Part shown: positions 7,847 through 24,000 of the stretch, in pieces
How positions within the stretch are numbered: position 1 is the first letter of the stretch
Layout: every line of letters starts with the position of its first letter
Assembly (NCBI RefSeq): GCF_900167165.1
Contig: NZ_FUXM01000004.1
Span: 2,901 to 26,900, forward strand
Origin: Carboxydocella sporoproducens DSM 16521
GTDB taxonomy: Bacteria > Bacillota > GCA-003054495 > Carboxydocellales > Carboxydocellaceae
DNA: 24,000 bases
Direction: 5' to 3'
Notes under the pieces: model-generated
What the model was told of the DNA's origin: nothing
The model's database searches: none
The model's input: the letters and a program-made list of their open reading frames with translations, nothing else
Program-made: the position numbers and the translations under genes

Positions 7847-8491
7847 TTAGGGTTTAACCAGCAATGACAGACGCCGGTTTACGGCATTGAGGGTAGCCTT
7901 TACCACAGTCTCCCACTCATCAACCCGGACGTAGGCGGAACCAATCAAGGCCTCTTCCTCTTCCGGGGTAACCAGGGTTACAGCTACCACTGCGGCTTGC
8001 TTGCGTCCCAGGTGAATGATGGCTACATCATCCACAGCGAAGGTGCAATTGCCGCGCAGATAGCGCTCCAGCGCATCCAGAGTGGCCTGAGCCACCAGGC
8101 GCAGTTTATTGTTATAGGCTCCCGGGCCCTGGGCTCGACCAAACATGGTATCATCACCGAGCTGAAGTTCCACTTCCGCCTTGGCTTGTACCCCTTCAGT
8201 AAACAGCTCAGCCCGTATCAGTTTGGGGCGAACCTCGGTGACGGGAATCTCTTCTTCATTAGCCATTTGAGCTACGGAAATTTTCTTGTGGTCCAGGGCC
8301 ACGCCAAACTGGGCCATCACCGCCGATTCTATATCCCGTACCAGTTGCTTGGGGCTGCGGTTTTGCTTGGCCAGAACATGGACTTCCTGAACTTCACCGT
8401 ATTCATTGGAAACTATTTTAGCAGAAACTACATCCTTTATCTGGCGAATAATAGCTTCAAATTCTCTGATCATTTCCGGAGTTACACCCAT
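7847..8491 (-). CDS. Hypothetical two-domain protein, no family recognised
   Basis: 214-aa ORF on the same strand as its neighbours, with non-repetitive composition. It has an N-terminal module of about 75 aa (IKDVVSAKIVSNEYGEVQEVHVLAK..PKQLVRDIESAV), an acidic linker (NEEEIPVTE) and a C-terminal alpha/beta-looking domain of about 130 aa. The SD is weak (GGAGAGGA about 16 nt upstream). Confidence 0.65.
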   Translation of the reverse strand: MGVTPEMIREFEAIIRQIKDVVSAKIVSNEYGEVQEVHVLAKQNRSPKQLVRDIESAVMAQFGVALDHKKISVAQMANEEEIPVTEVRPKLIRAELFTEGVQAKAEVELQLGDDTMFGRAQGPGAYNNKLRLVAQATLDALERYLRGNCTFAVDDVAIIHLGRKQAAVVAVTLVTPEEEEALIGSAYVRVDEWETVVKATLNAVNRRLSLLVKP

Positions 8492-8650: not shown

Positions 8651-9175
8651 TTAAAATTCAGGTTCGATCAGACCATATTTGCCATCGCGCCGCCGGTAAA
8701 CCACATTCACCTCATTGGTATCTGCATTACGGAAAACGTAGAAGGAATGACCTACCAGATTCATTTGCAAAATGGCTTCCTCGACAGGCATCGGTTTGAC
8801 CGCAAAGCGTTTGGTCTTGACCACACTGTCATCAATATCGGCTGTCTCCACATCAGCTGCAACTGGCTCCAGGGAAGCCAGGTTGCGCAGCTTTTTGCTG
8901 AGGCGGGCGCGATATTTTTGGACCTGACGTTCCAGTTTTTCCACTACCAGGTCGATAGAAGCATACATATCGTTGCTGGCTTCCTCGCCGCGGATAATCA
9001 TACCTTCAACGGGAATGGTCACTTCTACCCGATGCATGTTCTTTTCCACTACCAGAGTTACCTGCACATTGGTTATTTCACCCAGATATTTCTCCAGCTT
9101 ACCAATCCGCTTTTCCACATAATCTCTGAGTGCGTCCGTTACTTCAATGTTTTTCCCCCGTACAACAAACTTCAT
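8651..9175 (-). CDS. hpf: Ribosome hibernation promoting factor, long form
   Basis: MKFVVRGKNIEVTDALRDYVEKRIGKLEKYL... is the S30AE/HPF N-terminal domain. The C-terminal dimerisation domain (KRFAVKPMPVEEAILQMNLVGHSFYVFRN..TNEVNVVYRRRDGKYGLIEP) is typical of long HPF. I place the start at ATG 9175 (AAAGGAG about 9 nt upstream), not at the track GTG 9184. Confidence 0.93.
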   Translation of the reverse strand: MKFVVRGKNIEVTDALRDYVEKRIGKLEKYLGEITNVQVTLVVEKNMHRVEVTIPVEGMIIRGEEASNDMYASIDLVVEKLERQVQKYRARLSKKLRNLASLEPVAADVETADIDDSVVKTKRFAVKPMPVEEAILQMNLVGHSFYVFRNADTNEVNVVYRRRDGKYGLIEPEF

Positions 9176-9200
9176 AACAGTCACTCCTTTCTCGTCTGTA

Positions 9201-12155: not shown

Positions 12156-12267
12156 CTTACTATCCCTTCCTTCAGCTTCCTCCTGACTGCAGACATAATG
12201 GACTTTGAGCGGGGCAATACTAAATAAAGCTTAAGAATGGCAAATTTGCAGCAAAGGAGGATGCGGG

Positions 12268-12903
12268 GTGACTACCATCGATTGGTTGATTTTTTTCACC
12301 GGCCTGCTGGCTCTAGTGGCTCTTTTGTATTATCTTTTCATCCCCACCTGGCCCAGGCCAGCGCCCAAACCTGAACGGCAGGACCAGGAGTTCGCCAGTG
12401 AACTGGCCCCAGCCTTCCCGGTCAAAGAAATTGTAACAGATTTGCCCACCTATTACCAGGGAGATAATCGGCTAGTAGCTGTGGCCCGCGACCCGGAAAC
12501 TATTTTTGTCTACTGGCAGCTGGATCCGGTTTACCTGGAAAGCCTGGAGGCGGAATTACCAGCCCTGAAAAGCGGCATAACCCAGCTTCGTCTTTATCGA
12601 TATGATGAAACTACCGGGCAATGGCTGCTGGAAAATTGTAAAAACCTGACCAGTTTTGTGACCAGTTTTTATTTCCATCTGGCCCGCCCCGATGCCAGAT
12701 ATAAGGTGGAGTTAGGGCGATTGCTCAACAATCAACTCTTTTATTGCTTGCTGGTTAGCAATGAAGTAGTTACACCCAGAGCTTATTTTTCAGCTCTGAT
12801 TGATGAGAACTGGCCCCCCTTGCTGCCTTTATATCAACAATTACCGCAGAAAGAAAGGATGATTGGCTCCTATGTCCATTTCACAATTGCCCCAGATGTA
12901 TGA
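12268..12903 (+). CDS. DUF4912-like protein with N-terminal transmembrane anchor
   Basis: GTG start 6-7 nt after AAAGGAGG. One TM helix (IDWLIFFTGLLALVALLYYLFI), then LPTYYQGDNRLVAVARDPETIFVYWQL, the motif I associate with DUF4912. It is paralogous to the next ORF. Confidence 0.7.
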   Translation: MTTIDWLIFFTGLLALVALLYYLFIPTWPRPAPKPERQDQEFASELAPAFPVKEIVTDLPTYYQGDNRLVAVARDPETIFVYWQLDPVYLESLEAELPALKSGITQLRLYRYDETTGQWLLENCKNLTSFVTSFYFHLARPDARYKVELGRLLNNQLFYCLLVSNEVVTPRAYFSALIDENWPPLLPLYQQLPQKERMIGSYVHFTIAPDV

Positions 12904-13309
12904 GGAGAACCGTCTGGTCCTGTTAACCCGGGATCCCTGGTGGCTGTTTGCCTACTGGGACCTGCGCCATCCTATCGGGCCGCCTGATTTGCCCCGGTTT
13001 ATTCGCCTTTATCGCGGGGGCTTGAACGGCCCCCATTTTGATTATCCGGTACATCCCATGGCCAACAATTATTACCTGCGGGTTCCGGCCGCTAACTCCA
13101 CATATGTCGCCCAGCTGGGGCATCTGGAACAGGGGCAGTTTGTACCCTGGCTTACCTCCAATCCCGCCCTGACCCCGCGGGCAGAAGCCTCCGGCCGCTG
13201 GGATCCCGACTGGCCCCCTCTGGGCGTAGGGCCGGAAATTAAAGCCGGTACAGCTTCAGGCTGGGGAACTTCTCCCGGTTTCTGGAAAGCAGGTGAAAAA
13301 CATGCCTAA
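12872..13309 (+). CDS. DUF4912-like protein, soluble paralogue
   Basis: LPQMYEENRLVLLTRDPWWLFAYWDL...RLYR...TPRA...WPPL aligns with the upstream protein. It overlaps that gene by 32 nt and the GH57 gene by 8 nt. The start is ambiguous (ATG 12872 or TTG 12863). Confidence 0.7.
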   Translation: MSISQLPQMYEENRLVLLTRDPWWLFAYWDLRHPIGPPDLPRFIRLYRGGLNGPHFDYPVHPMANNYYLRVPAANSTYVAQLGHLEQGQFVPWLTSNPALTPRAEASGRWDPDWPPLGVGPEIKAGTASGWGTSPGFWKAGEKHA

Positions 13310-14921
13310 AGGCTATTTGGCTTTAGTGTTACATGCCCATTTACCCTATGTCCGGCATCCGGAAGATCCTGATGCTCTGGAAGAACGCTGGCTGTTTGAA
13401 GGCATCACTGAAACTTATATACCTTTACTGGCCAAATTTGAAAAACTGGTGGAGGATGGGGTGGATTTTCGGCTGACCATGTCTTTCAGCCCCACCCTGA
13501 CCTCCATGCTCCTGGATCCTCTGTTGCAAGAAAGGTATTATGTTTATTTAAGCAAATTAAGAGAGCTTATCTACAAAGAACTGGACCGTACCTATGGCGA
13601 TCCTCGTTTCCATCGCCTGGCTCAGATGTATCATTATCTGGTTAACCAGTGTTTTTATTATTTCTTTGAAAAATATGCCGGTAATTTATTAACCGGCTAT
13701 CGTCGCTTACAGGAAGCCGGACGATTGGAATTGATCACCTGTGGTGCTACCCATGCCTATTTCCCTTTAAATGGTTTGACCCGTCAGGCTGTACGGGCCC
13801 AGGTGGCTCTGGCCGTAGAAAACCACTGGCGGGTGTTTGGCAGTCAACCCCAGGGGATGTGGTTGCCAGAGTGTGCCTATCATCCCGGAGATGATGAATT
13901 TCTGGCGGAATTCGGCATTAGATACTTTTTCCTGGATACCCATGGTGTATTGTTTGCTTCCACCCGACCCCGTTACGGGGTCTATGCTCCCATTGTCACT
14001 CCCGCCGGGGTAGCAGCTTTCGGACGGGATGTGGAATCTTCCAAACAGGTCTGGAGTGCCGATGAAGGTTATCCCGGCGATTTCGATTACCGGGAATTCT
14101 ACCGGGACATCGGTTATGATTTGGATTATGACTATATCAAGGACTATATTCACCCCTCCGGTATCCGCTTACATACCGGCATCAAATATTACCGGATTAC
14201 GGGCAAGAAGAGCGAATGGAAAGAACCCTATGTGCCCGAGTGGGCTACAGAAAAGGCAGCCATCCACGCCGGCAACTTCATGTTCAACCGGGAACGCCAG
14301 GTTGAATACCTGGCGTCCCTGATGGACCGTAAACCCATTGTGGTAGCTCCCTATGATGCGGAATTGTTCGGTCACTGGTGGTTTGAAGGGCCTCAGTTCC
14401 TGGATTTTCTCTTGCGTAAAATCCATTATGATTCCAAAATCCTGAAAACTGCTACCCCTTCTGACTATCTGGCCGAATATCCCCGTAATCAGGTTACCGA
14501 ACCCTGCATCTCTTCCTGGGGCCATAAAGGATACCATGAAGTGTGGCTGGAAGGCAGTAATGACTGGATTTATCGGCATTTACACAAAGCCGCCGAACGG
14601 ATGACCGAATTGGCCCGCCGGTTTACTAATCCTACGGCAGAACAGGAACGGGCCCTCAACCAGGCCGCTCGTGAACTCTTACTGGCTCAGGCCAGTGACT
14701 GGGCCTTTATTATGAAAACAGGCACCATGGTGAATTATGCCATCAGACGTACCAAAAATCATATCCATAATTTCACCAGACTTTATGAACAATTGTTGCA
14801 AAACCAGCTGGATCTCCACTGGCTTCAAGAACTGGAAATTAATAACAATCTTTTCCCCTGGCTCAATTACCGCATTTATGCCTGGGAAGCTCCTCCTCAA
14901 AAAGCGAGGGCGTCGGTTTAA
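13302..14921 (+). CDS. GH57-family 1,4-alpha-glucan branching enzyme
   Basis: [18 protein letters not shown] at the N-terminus, GMWLPECAY (nucleophile Glu region) and [15 protein letters not shown] (acid/base Asp region) match my recollection of the Thermus/Thermococcus GH57 branching enzymes. ATG 13302 is preceded by AGGTGA. Confidence 0.9.
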
Positions 14922-14943
14922 CCGACACCCTCGCTTTCTTTCT
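14899..14943. terminator. Bidirectional intrinsic terminator containing both convergent stop codons
   Basis: 13-bp stem 14904..14916 / 14922..14934 (GCGAGGGCGTCGG / CCGACACCCTCGC). The one mispair is C-A on the plus RNA and G-U on the minus RNA. Loop is TTTAA. AAAAA lies on the left and TTTCTTTCT on the right. TAA (+) is 14919..14921 and TAA (-) is 14918..14920, within one TTAA. Confidence 0.75.
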
Positions 14944-17335
14944 GGATTTCCGTAATTTTTTGCAGCAACTGCTCAGTCAAGCTTTCTGCTATTTCCATGT
15001 CAGGTCCTTCCGCATAAATACGGCAAACGGGTTCCTCCGAATCGGGCAAAACCAGGGCCCAGGCGCCATTGTCCCAGAGCTTGATGCCATCCAGCAACTC
15101 CAACTCCCGATCCTGCAATTCTTCCATCAAGCGACGCATGACCAGGCCCTTGGCTTCCCAGGGACAGGCTGTGGATTTAGCAACCCAGTTAAAGTCAGGC
15201 AGCTCCTGTAACAGCCTTTCCAGCCCTTGCTCTTCCGCCTGCCTGAGCAGAACCAGCAGGGTATAGAGATCATCGGCCAGCAGGTAGAACCCCTCTTCAT
15301 CCTGCGCCCACTGATTCTGAATCAGGCCGGGATTAGTCTTGACCGGCTGAATCACCGCCCCCCGCTCTTGCAGGCGGCGGGCCAGGGCCTGGGGCCAGTG
15401 AACAGGATAGGGAATAACAGCTTGCTCTTTCCTTTGGGCATAGAGCCAGGTTTTCAGTATCTGAACCTGAGCGGGAGCCAAATACATTCCCCCGGGCAGA
15501 ACCAGGGATAAGCGTTCCCCTTCTTCCCCAAACCAGAGCCCCAGGTCCAATCTTTCTGTTTGTACCAGACTGATCAGCTGTTCCAGCTGCTGTTCCCCGT
15601 CCTGGAGATAGATGAGACGAAAACCGGTATCCTGAAAGATCCGGGGTAAAATCTGGGCCAGAGCCGGAGTCAGGGCCCCTACCCCAATTCGCCATTGATA
15701 ATTTTGTCCCCGCGGACGGAAATTGAGCAAAAAGCCGGTATATTCATCCAGTCCACTGGGCAAAGGCATAACCCGCCCCAGATGTCCGGCAGCTGTGCGC
15801 CGCATCCCTTCCCGTCCCAGCAGATTTTCCACCTTGCGTTCTTCTGCCGGAGTTAAGCTGGCTCCCTGCTGATTGAGGAGCAAAACCCGGGCCCGGTTGC
15901 CCTGCCCGCTGCCCTGAATATGCACCCCGCCACTGGCAGCCAGACTGCGAATCAAGTAGCGGCTGGCACCACCGGTCAGAATGCCGGCATCCCAGACCAC
16001 CATCCCTGCTCCCAGCAATCCCGCCAGAACAGCATGTTTCAGCATTGCTGCCGCCGGAGAATGGTCAGTGCTGACTAACAGGGCAGTTTCCGGCTGGAAT
16101 AGAGTGGCAAAAGCAGCCGCCACTTTCACCGCCTGTTCCGGAGTCAGTTCCCGGTTAATTTCTCCCACAATCCCCTCGCGCCCGAAGAGCGTACGGGGCT
16201 GGCGTTCTCCCCAAACCAGGTTTTCCCGCAGGCGGGCTCCGCTTTCCACCCGTTTCTGGGGCCAGATTTTTACCCCGGCATCTACATAAACCCGTTCGCC
16301 CAGTACCGTACCATCTCCGATCACCGCACCTTGATAAATCCGGCTCCCCTGACCCACCTTGACCTGACGGCAGAGGATAGCCCCGCGGATTTCTGCTCCG
16401 GCACCTATATTTACCCCTTCCCAGAGAACAGCCCGTTTAAGGCTGGCTTTGCTGCCGAGATGACAATTGCGGCCAATCACCGTAAAAGGCCCCACATAGG
16501 CCTCCGCATCAATAACGGTATCCGCTCCGATAAAAGCCGGCCCTTCCAGATAGGCCCGGGGATGGATTTTTGCCCCTGCCTCAGCCCAGACCCCCGGAGC
16601 TACCTGTTGACCGCCCAGTTCCAGCTGCACCCCACCGGCCAGCACGGCATAATGGGCTTCTGCATATTGTTGCAAATTGCCGATATCACACCAGTACCCC
16701 GCCAGGATACAGCCGAAGAGCGGTCTCCCTTCCGCCAGCAAGCGGGGAAAGAGATCTTTACTGAAATCAAACTGCTGACCTGCCGGAATATATTGCAATA
16801 CCCGGGGTTCCAGGATATAGATCCCGGTATTGACCGTATCACTGAAAACCTCACTCCAGCTGGGTTTTTCCAGGAAACGATAGATACTGCCATTTTTATC
16901 AGTCATCACTACCCCGTATTCCAGAGGTGTCTGGACCCGGGTCAAAACCAGGGTTGCCCAGGCACCCTTTTGCCGATGAAACTCAATGGCCCGGCTCAGG
17001 TCAAAATCCGTCAGCGCATCACCACTGATAACAATAAAAGGTTCATCCAAAAATTCTTCTGCATTTTTGACACTGCCAGCAGTGCCCAGGGGAGTTTCCT
17101 CCAGAAAATAGCGCATTTCCACCCCCCAGTCACTGCCATCGCCAAAATATTCCATAATGGCCTCCGGCAGATACTGCAAGGTAACCCCAATCTGACGGAT
17201 GCCATGTTTTTTCAGGAGATTGACAATGTGTTCCATCACCGGCCGGTTCAGTAAAGGCGTCAGAGGTTTGGGCCGGTCACAGGTTAATGGTCTCAGTCGG
17301 GAACCTTCCCCTCCCGCCATAATAATGGCTTTCAT
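14918..17335 (-). CDS. Sugar-1-phosphate nucleotidyltransferase + left-handed beta-helix + phosphohexomutase-like C-terminal domain (fusion protein)
   Basis: The N-terminus [22 protein letters not shown] is the GGxGxRL NTP-transferase signature. Residues about 270-360 carry hexapeptide repeats. Residues about 381-805 start with [13 protein letters not shown] and follow PGM/PMM domain order. GGAGGT lies 6 nt before the ATG. Confidence 0.85.
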
Positions 17336-17355
17336 AGCCAGACCTCCGTTCTCTA

Positions 17356-18528
17356 TTATTGTTCTGCCAGAATTTCTTCATAAACTGCTACCGTAGTGCG
17401 GGCAATTTTGTCCCAGTTATAGATTTCCAGCACCTCCCGGTAGGCCCTTTCTTCCACCTGCCGGGCAAAGGGCGGATCACAGAGAATTTTCAGCACATTA
17501 TCGGCCAGGGAATCAGGAGAACCTACATAGCATTTCAAACCATTTACGCCATGTTTAATAATTTCCCCCAGTCCACCGGTATCACTGACTACCACTGGCG
17601 TCCGGGCCGCCATAGCTTCCAGGGCCACAATACCAAAAGGTTCATACAGGCTGGGAAAAACCGCAACGGAAGCAGAACGGTACAGTTTATTACGGGTCAC
17701 ATCATCGATATAACCGGTAAAATAAATTCTCTCTGTCACGCCCATCTCCCAGGCCTTTTGCCGCAAATAACCTTCCGCCGGCCCTCGACCGGCGATAACG
17801 AACTTGGTCTGGGGATGGTAATGGAGAATTTTCGGAATGGCATCCAGCAAGACATGCGCCCCTTTTTCATGCACCAGCCGTCCTACGAAAAAGACGATTT
17901 TTTCGGTAGGATGGGCATATCGATTGCGAAAATCCGGTTCAGGTTCGGTTTGAAAATCCTCCGGCCTTACGCCGTTCGGTATGATACGGATTTTGTCTTC
18001 CGGCAGAGAGAATATGTATCTCACCTCATTATGCATATATTGACTGCAAACAATCACCCGCCAGGCTTCATAAGTCAGCCACCACTCCACATCACTGATA
18101 TAGCGCTGGTTATCATCATGCAGCCCCCAGTTGCGCCCGAATTCAGTGGCATGAATGGTAGCTACCAGTGGAATGTTCTGAGCGTGTTTAACCGCCCGGC
18201 TGACATATGCAGTTAACCAGTCATGGCAGTGAACAATATCCCAGGGGGCTGATTGGCTATCCCGCAAAGTCATGGTGAATTCCAGCATGGCCAGGTTCAA
18301 CTGCAAAATCCAGGTGCGAAAATCCGGAGCCCGCAAATGATATGGCTGGACGCGATAAACCTCCACCCCCTCTATATTTTCATAGGCAGGCAGGTTATCT
18401 CCCCCGCAGGTGACAACCTGAATTTCATGGCCCTGTTTGGCCGTGGCCAGAGTCAAATCATGCACATGCCGGGCCAGACCGCCTACGCTTTTGGGCGGAA
18501 ACTCCCAGGAATACATTAATATACGCAC
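17356..18528 (-). CDS. Retaining glycosyltransferase (GT4/GT5-like), glycogen-synthase-like
   Basis: N-terminal [21 protein letters not shown] resembles the K-x-GGL motif of archaeal-type glycogen synthases. E-x7-E motif present (EPFGIVALE). The likely start is GTG 18528 (AAAGGGGG + 6 nt), because the track ATG 18534 abuts the SD. Confidence 0.85.
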
Positions 18529-18592
18529 TGTCATCCCCCTTTCGTTCTGGATTTACTTGATTAGTTTATCCAGCGGGACGGAAAAATATGAT

Positions 18593-18623
18593 AAAAAAAG
18601 GGCATGGTTTACACCATGCGCCC
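18593..18623 (-). terminator. Rho-independent terminator after the CBM-gene triplet
   Basis: Minus strand GGGC(GC)ATGGT-GTAA-ACCATGCCC (9 bp plus a 2-nt bulge) followed by TTTTTTT. The stop codon of the 18609 gene sits in the loop. Confidence 0.7.
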
Positions 18624-18989
18624 ATTGTGAACAATAAAGGACCAGTTATTGCCATTGTTATTATCCCAGTTATTGGCACTGTCCTTGAAGCAGAAATTAA
18701 GCCTGGTCCCTTCGGCCACGGTTATGGTTTTTTCCCAGCCATGGCCGGTAAAATACATGGGATAGTCGGTTACCATCTGCCAGTTGTCATTGGAACCATA
18801 CCCTACATGCAGGTAGATTTGCTGGGCTCCGCTTTTAGCCAGCAGGCCGTTATACAGGATTGTCACTTCCTGACCAGCCGTAATCGGGGTAGGATCCACA
18901 GTCACACCGCCCTGTAGCTGGCTTTCTGCCATCTCCTTCAAGCGGTGATCACTATCGCGGAAATTGGTGTGTTTCATTTCCACCATCAT
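18609..18989 (-). CDS. Stand-alone CBM25/CBM53-like starch/glycogen-binding domain protein, copy 1
   Basis: ILYNGLLAKSGAQQIYLHVGYG..W...M...GWEKTITV...LNFCFKDSANNWDNNNGNNW matches the YN..L / G.N.W / F.F.D...WDNN.G pattern of CBM25/CBM53. No catalytic domain and no signal peptide. The start is ambiguous (ATG 18989/18986 or GTG 18983) because GGAGGTG lies immediately upstream. Confidence 0.75.
   Translation of the reverse strand: MMVEMKHTNFRDSDHRLKEMAESQLQGGVTVDPTPITAGQEVTILYNGLLAKSGAQQIYLHVGYGSNDNWQMVTDYPMYFTGHGWEKTITVAEGTRLNFCFKDSANNWDNNNGNNWSFIVHNGRMV
18661..18698. repeat. 38-nt stretch identical to 19389..19426 (copy 1 vs copy 3 of the CBM genes)
   Basis: ttatcccagttattggcactgtccttgaagcagaaatt occurs at both positions (compared by hand). 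Extending to 48 nt adds only 2 mismatches. Confidence 0.9.
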
Positions 18990-18998
18990 TTCACCTCC

Positions 18999-19337
18999 TC
19001 AGGAGATAACTTCCAGCCGCCAATTGTGGCCATTGTTGTTATCCCAGTTATTGGCCGCATCCCGGAAGCAAAAATTCAATTCATGGACATCCTGGACCTG
19101 GATGGTATTTTCCCAGCCCCGGGCAGTCCGCACCATAGGCATGTCCAGGGAATCATGCCAGTCCGGACCATAGCCGGCATGCAAATATACCTGGCTAGCA
19201 CCGCTATTGGCCAGGAGGCCATTGTAGATAATGGTCACTGAACCCCCGCGGGCTACCGGCAGGGGCCCGGCTACTACACCATTGACCAGGTGCCCTGTGC
19301 CCTCAATGGCGATATGATGCACCGTCTTCACCTCCAT
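18999..19337 (-). CDS. Stand-alone CBM25/CBM53-like domain protein, copy 2
   Basis: IIYNGLLANSGASQVYLHAGYG..W...M...GWENTIQV...LNFCFRDAANNWDNNNGHNW. ATG 19337 overlaps the upstream stop (TAATG). Alternatively GTG 19322 lies 6 nt after an internal GGAGGTG. Confidence 0.75.
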   Translation of the reverse strand: MEVKTVHHIAIEGTGHLVNGVVAGPLPVARGGSVTIIYNGLLANSGASQVYLHAGYGPDWHDSLDMPMVRTARGWENTIQVQDVHELNFCFRDAANNWDNNNGHNWRLEVIS

Positions 19338-19648
19338 TAGGCTCGCAAATTGTTGTTGATAGCTACTGACCAGTTGAGGCCATTATTGTTATCCCAGTTA
19401 TTGGCACTGTCCTTGAAGCAGAAATTGAGGCTGCCGGGATGTTCTACTGACAGCACCTTCTGCCAGCCATTGGCCGTTTTCTGCATGGGGTAATCACAAA
19501 CATATTCCCATTTATCCCCATAACCCACATGCAAGTACACCTGGTCAGCTCCCGACCGGGCCAGTAAGCCATTGTACTGAATCCGGACCAGATCACCCGC
19601 CTTGATAATGTCCGGAGTAACCTCAATTCCCTGTTGTTCAATCCGCAT
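19337..19648 (-). CDS. Stand-alone CBM25/CBM53-like domain protein, copy 3
   Basis: IQYNGLLARSGADQVYLHVGYGDKW...M...GWQKVLSV...LNFCFKDSANNWDNNNGLNW. I place the start at ATG 19648 (GGAGGTG + 6 nt) rather than the track start 19666. Confidence 0.75.
   Translation of the reverse strand: MRIEQQGIEVTPDIIKAGDLVRIQYNGLLARSGADQVYLHVGYGDKWEYVCDYPMQKTANGWQKVLSVEHPGSLNFCFKDSANNWDNNNGLNWSVAINNNLRA
19389..19426. repeat. 38-nt stretch identical to 18661..18698
   Basis: As for the partner repeat. It encodes (N)FCFKDSANNWDNN on the minus strand. Confidence 0.9.
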
Positions 19649-19697
19649 ATAAATCACCTCCGGCATTAGTATGATACCAGCAGGGCAAATCTATGCT

Positions 19698-19727
19698 AAA
19701 AAAATAGCCCTCGGTTTAACCGAGGGC
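19698..19727 (-). terminator. Rho-independent terminator after sdhB
   Basis: GCCCTCGG (19707..19714) / CCGAGGGC (19720..19727), 8-bp perfect stem, 5-nt loop. On the minus strand it is followed by TATTTTTTT. Confidence 0.8.
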
Positions 19728-23534: not shown

Positions 23535-23954
23535 TCAGTTAATATCCACTTTGATGCTGCGTCCTCGTCCCGCTTTGGGGATCCGGATTTCCAGGATGCC
23601 ATTGCGGTAGGATGCCCGGGCTTCTTCTGCCTTTACCGCCGCCGGCAGGGTAAAGGTGCGGGCAAAGGCGCCATAGAACCGTTCAGCATGATGGTAGTCT
23701 TCATCTCTGGTTTCCGCACTGCGCTTGATTTCTCCCCGGATGGTAACCGCATCTTCGGTAACCCGCACATCCAGATCCTCCCTGGACTCAAGGCCGGGGA
23801 TTTCCGCTACCACCACCACTTCATTTTCCGTCTGATAGATGTCCACCCGTGGCCCCGCTACCTGATAGCCCAGAAAGCCCTCCCGGCTGCGGCCTACCGC
23901 TTCCTGGACAAAGCGGTTGAACTCGCGAAAAGGGTCAAAGGGTATAAGGGTCAT
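23535..23954 (-). CDS. Hsp20/alpha-crystallin family small heat-shock protein
   Basis: PRVDIYQTENEVVVVAEIPGL...ERFYGAFARTFTLP..V..EEARASYRNGILEIRIPK is the alpha-crystallin domain. I place the start at ATG 23954 (GGAGG + 8 nt) rather than the track GTG 23963. Confidence 0.9.
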   Translation of the reverse strand: MTLIPFDPFREFNRFVQEAVGRSREGFLGYQVAGPRVDIYQTENEVVVVAEIPGLESREDLDVRVTEDAVTIRGEIKRSAETRDEDYHHAERFYGAFARTFTLPAAVKAEEARASYRNGILEIRIPKAGRGRSIKVDIN

Positions 23955-24000
23955 CTTCATCACCTCCCCTTATACTCTTTTCCCGTGACGGGCAGAATTA

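Follow-up and report, generated by a model that had tools for sequence, protein, structure and literature searches.

Free-standing CBM53 proteins beside a glycogen-type gene cluster of Carboxydocella sporoproducens, and the forespore-like motifs upstream of them

Three small, putatively glucan-binding proteins

This study concerns three small genes in a stretch of 24,000 nucleotides from Carboxydocella sporoproducens DSM 16521 (contig NZ_FUXM01000004.1, positions 2,901 to 26,900 of the forward strand), which I will call the window and to whose own numbering all coordinates refer unless another locus is named. The genes, referred to as A, B and C in the order of their transcription, occupy 18609-19666 of the minus strand, between sdhB and the gene for a glycosyltransferase of family GT4, and each encodes one carbohydrate-binding module of family CBM53 and nothing more. 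I lean towards the view that the three proteins are cytoplasmic, non-catalytic partners that bind the alpha-glucan of an uncharacterised glycogen pathway and are probably expressed in the forespore. The view is built from comparisons of sequence: the identity of the domain, its conservation, the company that the genes keep in other genomes and the motifs that precede them. The features on which it turns are as follows (aa, amino acids; ORF, open reading frame).

19337..19648, minus strand: CBM53-only gene A, 103 aa from ATG 19648, short subtype (naive ORF 19337-19666)
18999..19337, minus strand: CBM53-only gene B, 107 aa from GTG 19322 or 112 aa from ATG 19337
18609..18986, minus strand: CBM53-only gene C, 125 aa from ATG 18986, long subtype with a conserved N-terminal extension (ORF 18609-18989)
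19667..19696, minus strand: promoter-like element GCATA-18 nt-CATACTA(A), a match to the forespore sigma-G-type consensus upstream of gene A
19707..19727, minus strand: strong intrinsic terminator after sdhB (9-bp stem with 7 G-C pairs, then a T-run), the upstream boundary of the CBM53 operon
18602..18619, minus strand: terminator-like hairpin with a T7 run that overlaps the stop codon of gene C and separates the CBM53 genes from GT4

Domain identity and putative sugar-binding residues

All three proteins match the Pfam model of CBM53 (PF16760) above its curated cut-off of 27.6 bits, with scores of 41.0 bits for A (E 2.3e-10), 46.8 bits for B (E 3.7e-12) and 49.1 bits for C (E 7e-13). They stay just under the cut-off of 27.3 bits for CBM_25 (PF03423), at 25.9, 22.1 and 24.3 bits, and by threshold do not belong to CBM25. 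The Pfam scan found no domain in them beyond CBM53 and this subthreshold CBM_25, and NCBIfam holds no model for them. An earlier note, made from the letters of the window, had described each ORF as a single CBM25/CBM53-like module lacking a catalytic domain, on the strength of the motifs YNGLL, YLHxGYG, W, M, GW, NFCF[KR]D and ANNWDNNNGxNW. The profile search (CBM53 at E 2e-10 to 7e-13) agrees with that description, and the motifs are present in the trio and conserved across the family.

The structural comparison that the note had proposed points the same way. The only credible relatives that phmmer found among the sequences of the Protein Data Bank (PDB) are CBM25 modules, the best matches being 2LAA/2LAB of P. 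polymyxa (E 8e-4 and 4e-3) and 2C3V of B. halodurans (E 0.05). The AlphaFold2 (AF2) model of gene A is an all-beta fold, the beta-sandwich of a CBM, with a predicted local distance difference test score (pLDDT) of 92.5, and Foldseek returned starch-active enzymes and CBM25 entries. The His of YLHxGYG, the first Trp and the second Trp (that of NNWDNNNG) align to positions 26, 34 and 74 of 2C3V, which are reported to form the maltooligosaccharide platform of BhCBM25 (Boraston et al. 2006). Among 18 diverse family members neither Trp varies and the His is kept in at least 90%; both Trp are likewise invariant in an alignment of 62 sequences of the long subtype, and all three positions are kept in gene B. 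The alignment thus shows the conserved aromatic/His platform looked for in a CBM53. By profile, predicted fold and aligned binding residues, the trio are members of CBM53, on the CBM53 side of CBM25.

Gene boundaries, selection and predicted location

The sequence GGAGGTG precedes the plausible start of each gene: ATG 19648 for A, GTG 19322 or ATG 19337 for B and ATG 18986 for C. Genes called independently on a related contig, L081, are 103, 112 and 125 aa long. That contig is about 94% identical to the window in the GT4 and copy-A proteins and has the same layout: sdhCAB, three CBM53 genes, GT4. The tight packing reported earlier (a TAATG overlap and a 9-nt gap) can be read directly from the sequence, as can the GGAGGTG just inside each naive ORF start, and the two terminators that had been placed on either side of the trio were located at 19727-19707 and 18619-18602. 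The trio therefore looks like a short transcription unit of its own, bounded by a terminator on each side. A comparable hairpin and T-run separates the last CBM53 gene from GT4 in 16 of 27 related loci, through hairpins of unrelated sequence, a recurrence that suggests that the CBM53 genes are expressed at a higher level than the enzymes or separately from them. The antisense ORFs over the CBM53 and GT4 genes (18588-18917, 18945-19241 and 17359-18216, all on the plus strand) were considered and set aside: they have neither homologues nor domains and are shadows of the real genes.

Comparison with L081 gives ratios of nonsynonymous to synonymous substitution (dN/dS) of 0.023 for A, 0.075 for B and 0.002 for C, at dS values of about 0.9-1.4 that are near saturation. 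Over the aligned codons, which take in the N-terminal extension, the two copy C proteins are identical at a dS of 1.39, and copy C is held more tightly than either SdhB (0.016) or GT4 (0.028) from the same comparison. The three genes are real and under strong purifying selection. As paralogues they are old (mutual identity 48-61%), B being the most divergent; copy A shares 69% of its residues with the orthologue found in a metagenome-assembled genome (MAG) of Carboxydocellales (L002), and copy C is 67-71% identical to its orthologues.

The family falls into a short subtype of about 100-107 aa, to which copy A belongs, and a long subtype of about 120-130 aa, to which copy C belongs. The N-terminal extension of the long subtype has the consensus x(S/T)xF(G/R)x4RLxxMxxAxYPGG, conserved across lineages. 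AF2 models copy C with a disordered stretch (residues 1-11), a helix at residues 12-21 (pLDDT 65-74) and then a confident beta-sandwich, a predicted profile that is typical of a docking segment that becomes ordered upon binding.

The trio proteins are best read as cytoplasmic. The highest Kyte-Doolittle average (10 residues, within the first 45 aa) is 1.0-1.7 in the trio, where it falls within beta-strands, as against 2.5 for a lipoprotein encoded in the window; the earlier statement that no N-terminal signal sequence is present thus holds by this measure. Inspection of about 100 N-termini of the family, the trio being judged by hydropathy, revealed no signal peptide or lipobox. The neighbours of the trio are cytoplasmic enzymes.

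Extent of the family

A word-indexed search returned 393 homologues. The best 120 of these are all 98-131 aa long, have PF16760 as their sole domain and come from Bacillota (Desulfurispora, Neomoorella, Thermincola, heliobacteria, Thermacetogenium, Syntrophomonadaceae and Formimonas). Where homologues bear a name in the database, it is 'carbohydrate-binding protein' or something similar. An exhaustive profile search of 1.84 billion cluster representatives gave 1263 matches at E <= 1e-3 and 696 at E <= 1e-10, and most of its top matches are again single-domain proteins, of 95-200 aa. Ten multi-domain matches were scanned: three are GH13 amylases or fragments of them (one with a dockerin), two are fusions of DUF2935 to CBM53, and the rest are CBM53/CBM25-type modules alone. 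The two fusions (P0151 and P0158), in which the uncharacterised DUF2935 precedes a C-terminal CBM53 of this subfamily, are the only ones among the ten with a partner that is not carbohydrate-active.

Scanning a single genome for each GTDB species yielded 451 family loci. I surveyed 80 related loci with flanks of 10 kb, 75 of which could be tested for neighbouring genes. There is one CBM53 copy in 64 of the loci, two in 15 and three in a single one (L007), whose triplet has the order short-divergent-long that is found in the window; L081 is a further case of three copies. The earlier note considered both the free-standing state and the triplication to be unusual. The first does not stand, since such proteins form a large family in Bacillota, and the second does.

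One two-copy CBM53-GT4 arrangement (L035, contig JBLMZI010000007.1) is in a MAG labelled Solirubrobacterales (Actinomycetota). Its proteins are near-identical to those of Syntrophomonadaceae/Syntrophothermus loci, so the contig is probably mis-binned.

Neighbouring alpha-glucan genes

The trio adjoins two sets of genes that may be assigned to alpha-glucan synthesis.

17356..18534, minus strand: GT4 glycosyltransferase, a candidate alpha-1,4-glucan synthase or GlgM-like enzyme (Pfam Glycos_transf_1, Glyco_transf_4, Glyco_transf_5)
14918..17335, minus strand: NDP-sugar pyrophosphorylase/phosphohexomutase fusion, 805 aa (Pfam NTP_transferase, LbH, PGM_PMM_I), here called the fusion enzyme
13293..14921, plus strand: GH57 glycogen branching enzyme (Pfam Glyco_hydro_57, BE_C; NCBIfam 1,4-alpha-glucan branching protein at E 1e-103, below equivalog cut-offs)
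12268..13309, plus strand: two overlapping DUF4912 genes (211 and 148 aa; Pfam DUF4912), which head the GH57 operon

The N-terminal domain of the GT4 enzyme is of the starch-synthase type, and its closest solved structures are GlgM 6TVP, a mycobacterial maltose-1-phosphate synthase (E 1e-27), and the glycogen synthase GlgA of P. abyssi. It scores 162 bits against TIGR02149, far under the cut-off of 302. The closest solved structure to the fusion enzyme is 8X7S, a UTP-glucose-1-phosphate uridylyltransferase (E 1e-72). In many loci this gene is conserved downstream of GT4, an arrangement that suggests that substrate is channelled from glucose-6-phosphate to NDP-glucose. The pairing of DUF4912 with GH57 is kept in L081 and in most of the related loci. 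The DUF4912 proteins are a second set of small non-catalytic proteins in the cluster; the searchable literature has only two mentions of DUF4912, both unrelated and incidental.

GT4 lies directly downstream of a CBM53 gene on the same strand in 27 of the 75 testable loci, and 41 of the 75 have GT4, the fusion enzyme or GH57 within 10 kb. The usual order is CBM53 (one to three copies), GT4, fusion enzyme, with GH57 and DUF4912 on the opposite strand. The layout of the window recurs in Desulforamulus reducens MI-1 (ABO50846.1), Calderihabitans maritimus and L081, while elsewhere it is rearranged: in Natroniella CBM53 adjoins DUF4912-GH57, and in Pseudobacteroides and its relatives CBM53 is divergent from the fusion enzyme. 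That the trio sits beside biosynthetic genes, as the earlier note remarked, is therefore more than a local circumstance, the synteny with GT4, pyrophosphorylase/PGM, GH57 and DUF4912 recurring across many lineages. A functional link between the CBM53 family and alpha-glucan synthesis is supported by this conservation of gene order.

The leader of GT4 (18535-18601, minus strand) contains a hairpin, CTGGAT...ATCCAG, just before a GGGGG ribosome-binding site. It matches nothing in Rfam and could be an attenuator or an element of translational control. Between the last CBM53 gene and GT4 in L001-L003 there is a hairpin CCCCCTGG...CCAGGGGG followed by TTTGT or TTTAT.

Forespore-type promoter motifs

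The element upstream of gene A resembles promoters read by the forespore sigma factors. The late-forespore factor sigma-G of B. subtilis has the consensus GHATR-18 nt-CATXHTA; the window element fits it at every position and with the exact spacer, and nothing else in the window matches GHATR-17/18-CATXHTA. The sequence CATACTAA is invariant upstream of the operon in the window, L081 and L001-L003, with GCATA or GTATG 18 nt before it, even though the proteins of L001-L003 are only 67-69% identical. This sigma-G consensus has 22 exact matches in 2.7 Mb, nine of which stand just before CBM53 or fusion-enzyme genes.

For a measure drawn from mapped promoters, a two-block sigma-G matrix was trained only on 30 mapped promoters of C. 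difficile (Saujet et al. 2013, Table S6; consensus TGAATAA-14 to 17 nt-nAATAATA), and the best score in the 320 nt upstream was taken for 79 first-in-block CBM53 genes and for 1198 other genes of the same loci. The medians are 8.5 for the CBM53 genes and 5.5 for the others (Mann-Whitney p = 1.5e-21), and the upstream regions of 27 of the 79 exceed the 95th percentile of the other genes, those of seven the 99th. Loci of Peptococcaceae have a near-perfect TGAATAA-16-(C/G)AATAATA. When the motif is written as a strict expression, it occurs before 11 of 79 CBM53 genes and eight of 1198 others (Fisher p = 1.3e-9). A relaxed expression, defined post hoc on data already seen, finds 35 of 79 and 36 of 1198.

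The motif goes with the genes that begin operons. It precedes GT4 in 11 of 45 loci and the first DUF4912 gene (DUF4912a) in seven of 13, the latter with scores above the 95th percentile of other genes, and the motif is scarce before operon-internal genes (fusion enzyme, one of 28; GH57, none of 20). The 36 comparison genes that have the relaxed motif include 13 copies of GT4, DUF4912a or the fusion enzyme and two genes that by eye resemble those of GH77 amylomaltases. The motif also precedes family members that are unlinked to the cluster, as in Thermacetogenium. The window, 48 kb when both strands are counted, has four relaxed matches, three of which precede gene A (19696), DUF4912a (12193) and the fusion enzyme (17383). 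The last two are these.

12193..12222, plus strand: second forespore-type promoter-like element, ACATA-17 nt-CAATACTA(A), before the DUF4912-GH57 operon
17354-17383, minus strand: forespore-type promoter-like motif TTATG-17-CAATAATA, within the 3' end of GT4 and upstream of the pyrophosphorylase/mutase gene

From these motifs I infer that a forespore sigma factor of the sigma-G/F type reads both the CBM53 operon and the glucan operons next to it. An A after the -10 block and the lack of a G before it favour sigma-G over sigma-F by the criteria of Saujet et al., though the two factors are not confidently separable. The loci contain no SASP (small acid-soluble spore protein) genes that could have served for calibration. 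Forespore-like promoters shift the likely setting of the system from vegetative glycogen granules to the developing spore.

Two observations concern other genes with the motif. The two GH77 genes (L022, 6601-8688, and L036, 6768-8837, both minus strand) encode proteins of about 690 aa that resemble 4-alpha-glucanotransferases (MalQ-like by eye); the promoter motif stands 36 nt upstream of their start, and they sit about 1.2 kb upstream of a CBM53 gene. In L002 a relaxed forespore-type motif lies 29 nt upstream of a gene for a hibernation factor.

Alternative explanations

Several points weigh against the reading given above, some of them bearing on the time of expression. The promoter call, both for the window element and for the enrichment across the family, agrees with sigma-G/F and was made by motif matching alone, and transcription from the window element would begin about 12 nt upstream of the gene, giving a leader that opens at the Shine-Dalgarno sequence. 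The proteins might play the same part as glucan partners in vegetative or stationary cells, from a sigma-A promoter, the forespore-like motif being a chance AT-rich variant or the site of another regulator. A sigma-70-like TTAGCA-17-(TG)TATCAT does overlap the window element, as a weaker match; the consensus sequences of forespore and mother cell are short and AT-rich; the CATACTA promoter of the window itself scores poorly with the C. difficile matrix; and clostridial granulose is made before or outside the forespore (PMC2530871). What makes me consider this alternative unlikely, while taking it seriously, is that the sigma-70-like hexamers are not kept in L001-L003, while CATACTAA is invariant, and that the enrichment is specific to CBM53 and promoter-proximal glucan genes when set against the 1198 others. 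The homologue of D. reducens is also absent by name from the supplementary lists of the surfaceome of that organism, which is weak evidence.

The ligand and the partner may be questioned as well. In about 45% of the surveyed loci the 10-kb flanks are free of glucan genes, the CBM53 gene standing amid unrelated housekeeping genes (glcD/F, comM, leuA/CD). The GT4 enzyme is closest to GlgM, so that direct synthesis and a maltose-1-phosphate route are both candidates, and the window shows no GlgE. The top 120 homologues of GT4 include no fusion of it with CBM53, and domain fusion therefore lends a physical partnership no support. The terminator between the CBM53 genes and GT4 counts against co-expression at 1:1 as a subunit of the enzyme. 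One might suppose from the unlinked family members that these are CBM-fold modules for protein interaction or regulation, which bind some other target (a glycan of the cell wall or cortex, or the surface of an enzyme) and regulate GT4 or something else with no involvement of glycogen. The extreme conservation and N-terminal helix of copy C point to protein contacts, and xylan, pectin and cellulose are in vitro ligands of the CBM53 modules of AtSSIII (PMC6243121). I nevertheless find the proposal quite improbable, given that the residues aligned with the maltooligosaccharide platform of CBM25 are conserved (both Trp without exception), that polymers of the wall are out of reach of cytoplasmic proteins and that the synteny is specifically with alpha-glucan enzymes. 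A more particular role, that of a glycogenin-like primer in which GT4 glucosylates the small CBM53 protein to seed a new glucan particle, has behind it only the gene order, CBM53 before GT4, and the open question of how GT4 initiates a chain. Nothing in sequence or structure points to an acceptor loop or to autoglucosylation, family members occur with no GT4 nearby, and the proposal is pure speculation to which I attach hardly any weight.

Finally, the module has its closest multi-domain relatives among secreted amylases, GH13 enzymes with a dockerin or several CBM25/53 modules. It might be imagined that the trio leaves the cell by non-classical export or on lysis of the mother cell and serves as starch-binding adhesins outside the cell or on the surface of the spore, in the way of the CBM25/26/53 arrays of secreted amylases. 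This is very improbable in view of the roughly 100 family N-termini devoid of signal peptide or lipobox, the lack of nearby secretion or amylase genes and the synteny with cytoplasmic biosynthetic enzymes; moreover, a forespore promoter would put a signal-less protein in the core of the spore. The searchable literature contains no study of any family member and no data on binding, localisation or expression, and no transcriptome or proteome covering the trio or family genes was found in it. With these points in the balance, cytoplasmic glucan-binding partners of the cluster, probably made in the forespore, are still the reading towards which I lean.

Comparison with known systems

CBM53 has been known almost solely from the N-terminal three-module arm of plant starch synthase III (SSIII) and from secreted amylases. 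The trio resembles plant and algal SSIII in belonging to PF16760 and in being three copies tied to a glucan synthase. It differs in that the modules of SSIII stand in tandem, N-terminal to a GT5 domain, while those of the window are separate proteins of 100-125 aa next to a GT4 gene in a member of the Bacillota; besides, one copy of the window has an N-terminal helix, and most relatives are single-copy. According to a review of starch-binding domains, CBM53 occurs for the most part in SSIII, where three modules in tandem are usual, and no CBM53 structure had been solved when the review was written (PMC6243121). A 2024 survey of prokaryotic alpha-glucan enzymes in Chemical Reviews never mentions CBM53 or CBM25.

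The CBM25 modules of secreted amylases (2C3V/2C3W of B. halodurans, 2LAA/2LAB of P. polymyxa) are like the trio in sequence (E 8e-4 to 0.05), in their beta-sandwich and in the aligned His/Trp/Trp, but they are appended to extracellular enzymes with signal peptides, whereas the trio is free-standing, has no export signal and scores below the CBM_25 cut-off. The plant proteins PTST1/2/3, which direct starch synthases to glucans, offer a conceptual likeness, being non-catalytic, glucan-binding and active together with a synthase, an interaction with an enzyme that for the trio is putative. They carry CBM48 and coiled coils and are not homologous to the trio, which has CBM53 only: no CBM48 match was found in Pfam and no coiled coil, the only helix outside the beta-sandwich being the 10 residues in copy C. 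An adaptor or scaffold role like that of PTST is a reasonable analogy.

Small acid-soluble spore proteins depend on sigma-G and coat DNA in the spore core. The trio shares with SASPs small size, several paralogues, a sigma-G-type motif and the predicted binding of a polymer in the forespore. The comparison is one of analogy only, there being no kinship of sequence or fold and the predicted ligand being glucan where that of SASPs is DNA. The cluster of the window is of a known prokaryotic type, that of the GH57 branching enzyme and GT4, but I know of no description that links such clusters to sporulation promoters.

Two further sets of genes in the window may be recorded here. An ORF of 214 aa with no Pfam match (7847-8491, minus strand) lies between the genes for an HD-domain (MASE9) protein and a ribosome hibernation factor, and is kept in L081 (215 aa, also with no Pfam match). 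Genes associated with dormancy or stress flank the region: a hibernation-promoting factor (S30AE; 8651-9184, minus strand) and Hsp20 (23535-23963, minus strand).

A possible mechanism and its significance

If the favoured reading is right, the CBM53 proteins would bind the alpha-1,4-glucan chains made by the GT4/GH57 cluster and would work in trans as the glucan-binding parts of the pathway, a 'split' counterpart of the three modules that SSIII has in cis. They might hold or coat the growing polymer, passing it to the enzymes or shielding it from them, and paralogue C may dock on a partner protein through its conserved N-terminal helix. The affinity of a single CBM53 is modest (PMC6243121), and usefulness probably requires multivalency, which could come from the three paralogues, from oligomers or from docking on enzymes. 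The terminator before GT4, together with the unlinked copies, argues for an abundant protein that coats or organises the polymer rather than a strict 1:1 subunit of the enzyme. If transcribed in the forespore, the system would build or package a reserve of glucan within the developing spore.

One may go further, though only tentatively and with more doubt than conviction, and suppose that a forespore reserve of alpha-glucan exists in many anaerobic endospore formers (Desulfotomaculia, Heliobacteria, Moorellia, Thermincolia, Syntrophomonadia, Halanaerobiales and some Negativicutes). It would be made by a sigma-G-controlled pathway of GT4, pyrophosphorylase-mutase, GH57 and DUF4912, with the CBM53 proteins as 'SASP-like' proteins of the spore core that coat, compact or protect the glucan until germination. 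If true, this would be an unrecognised energy store of the spore with packaging proteins of its own.

Within the searchable literature, three things appear to be new: free cytoplasmic single modules with up to three paralogues, their partnership with an uncharacterised GT4/GH57/DUF4912 cluster, and the sporulation-type promoters of this system. In plants the role of the module is hard to separate from that of the enzyme. Should the bacterial proteins act in trans, they would provide a simple system in which to learn how non-catalytic modules control the initiation of glucan, the length of its chains and the size of its particles, and if the promoters are what their motifs suggest, the view of energy storage and germination in spores outside Bacillus would change.

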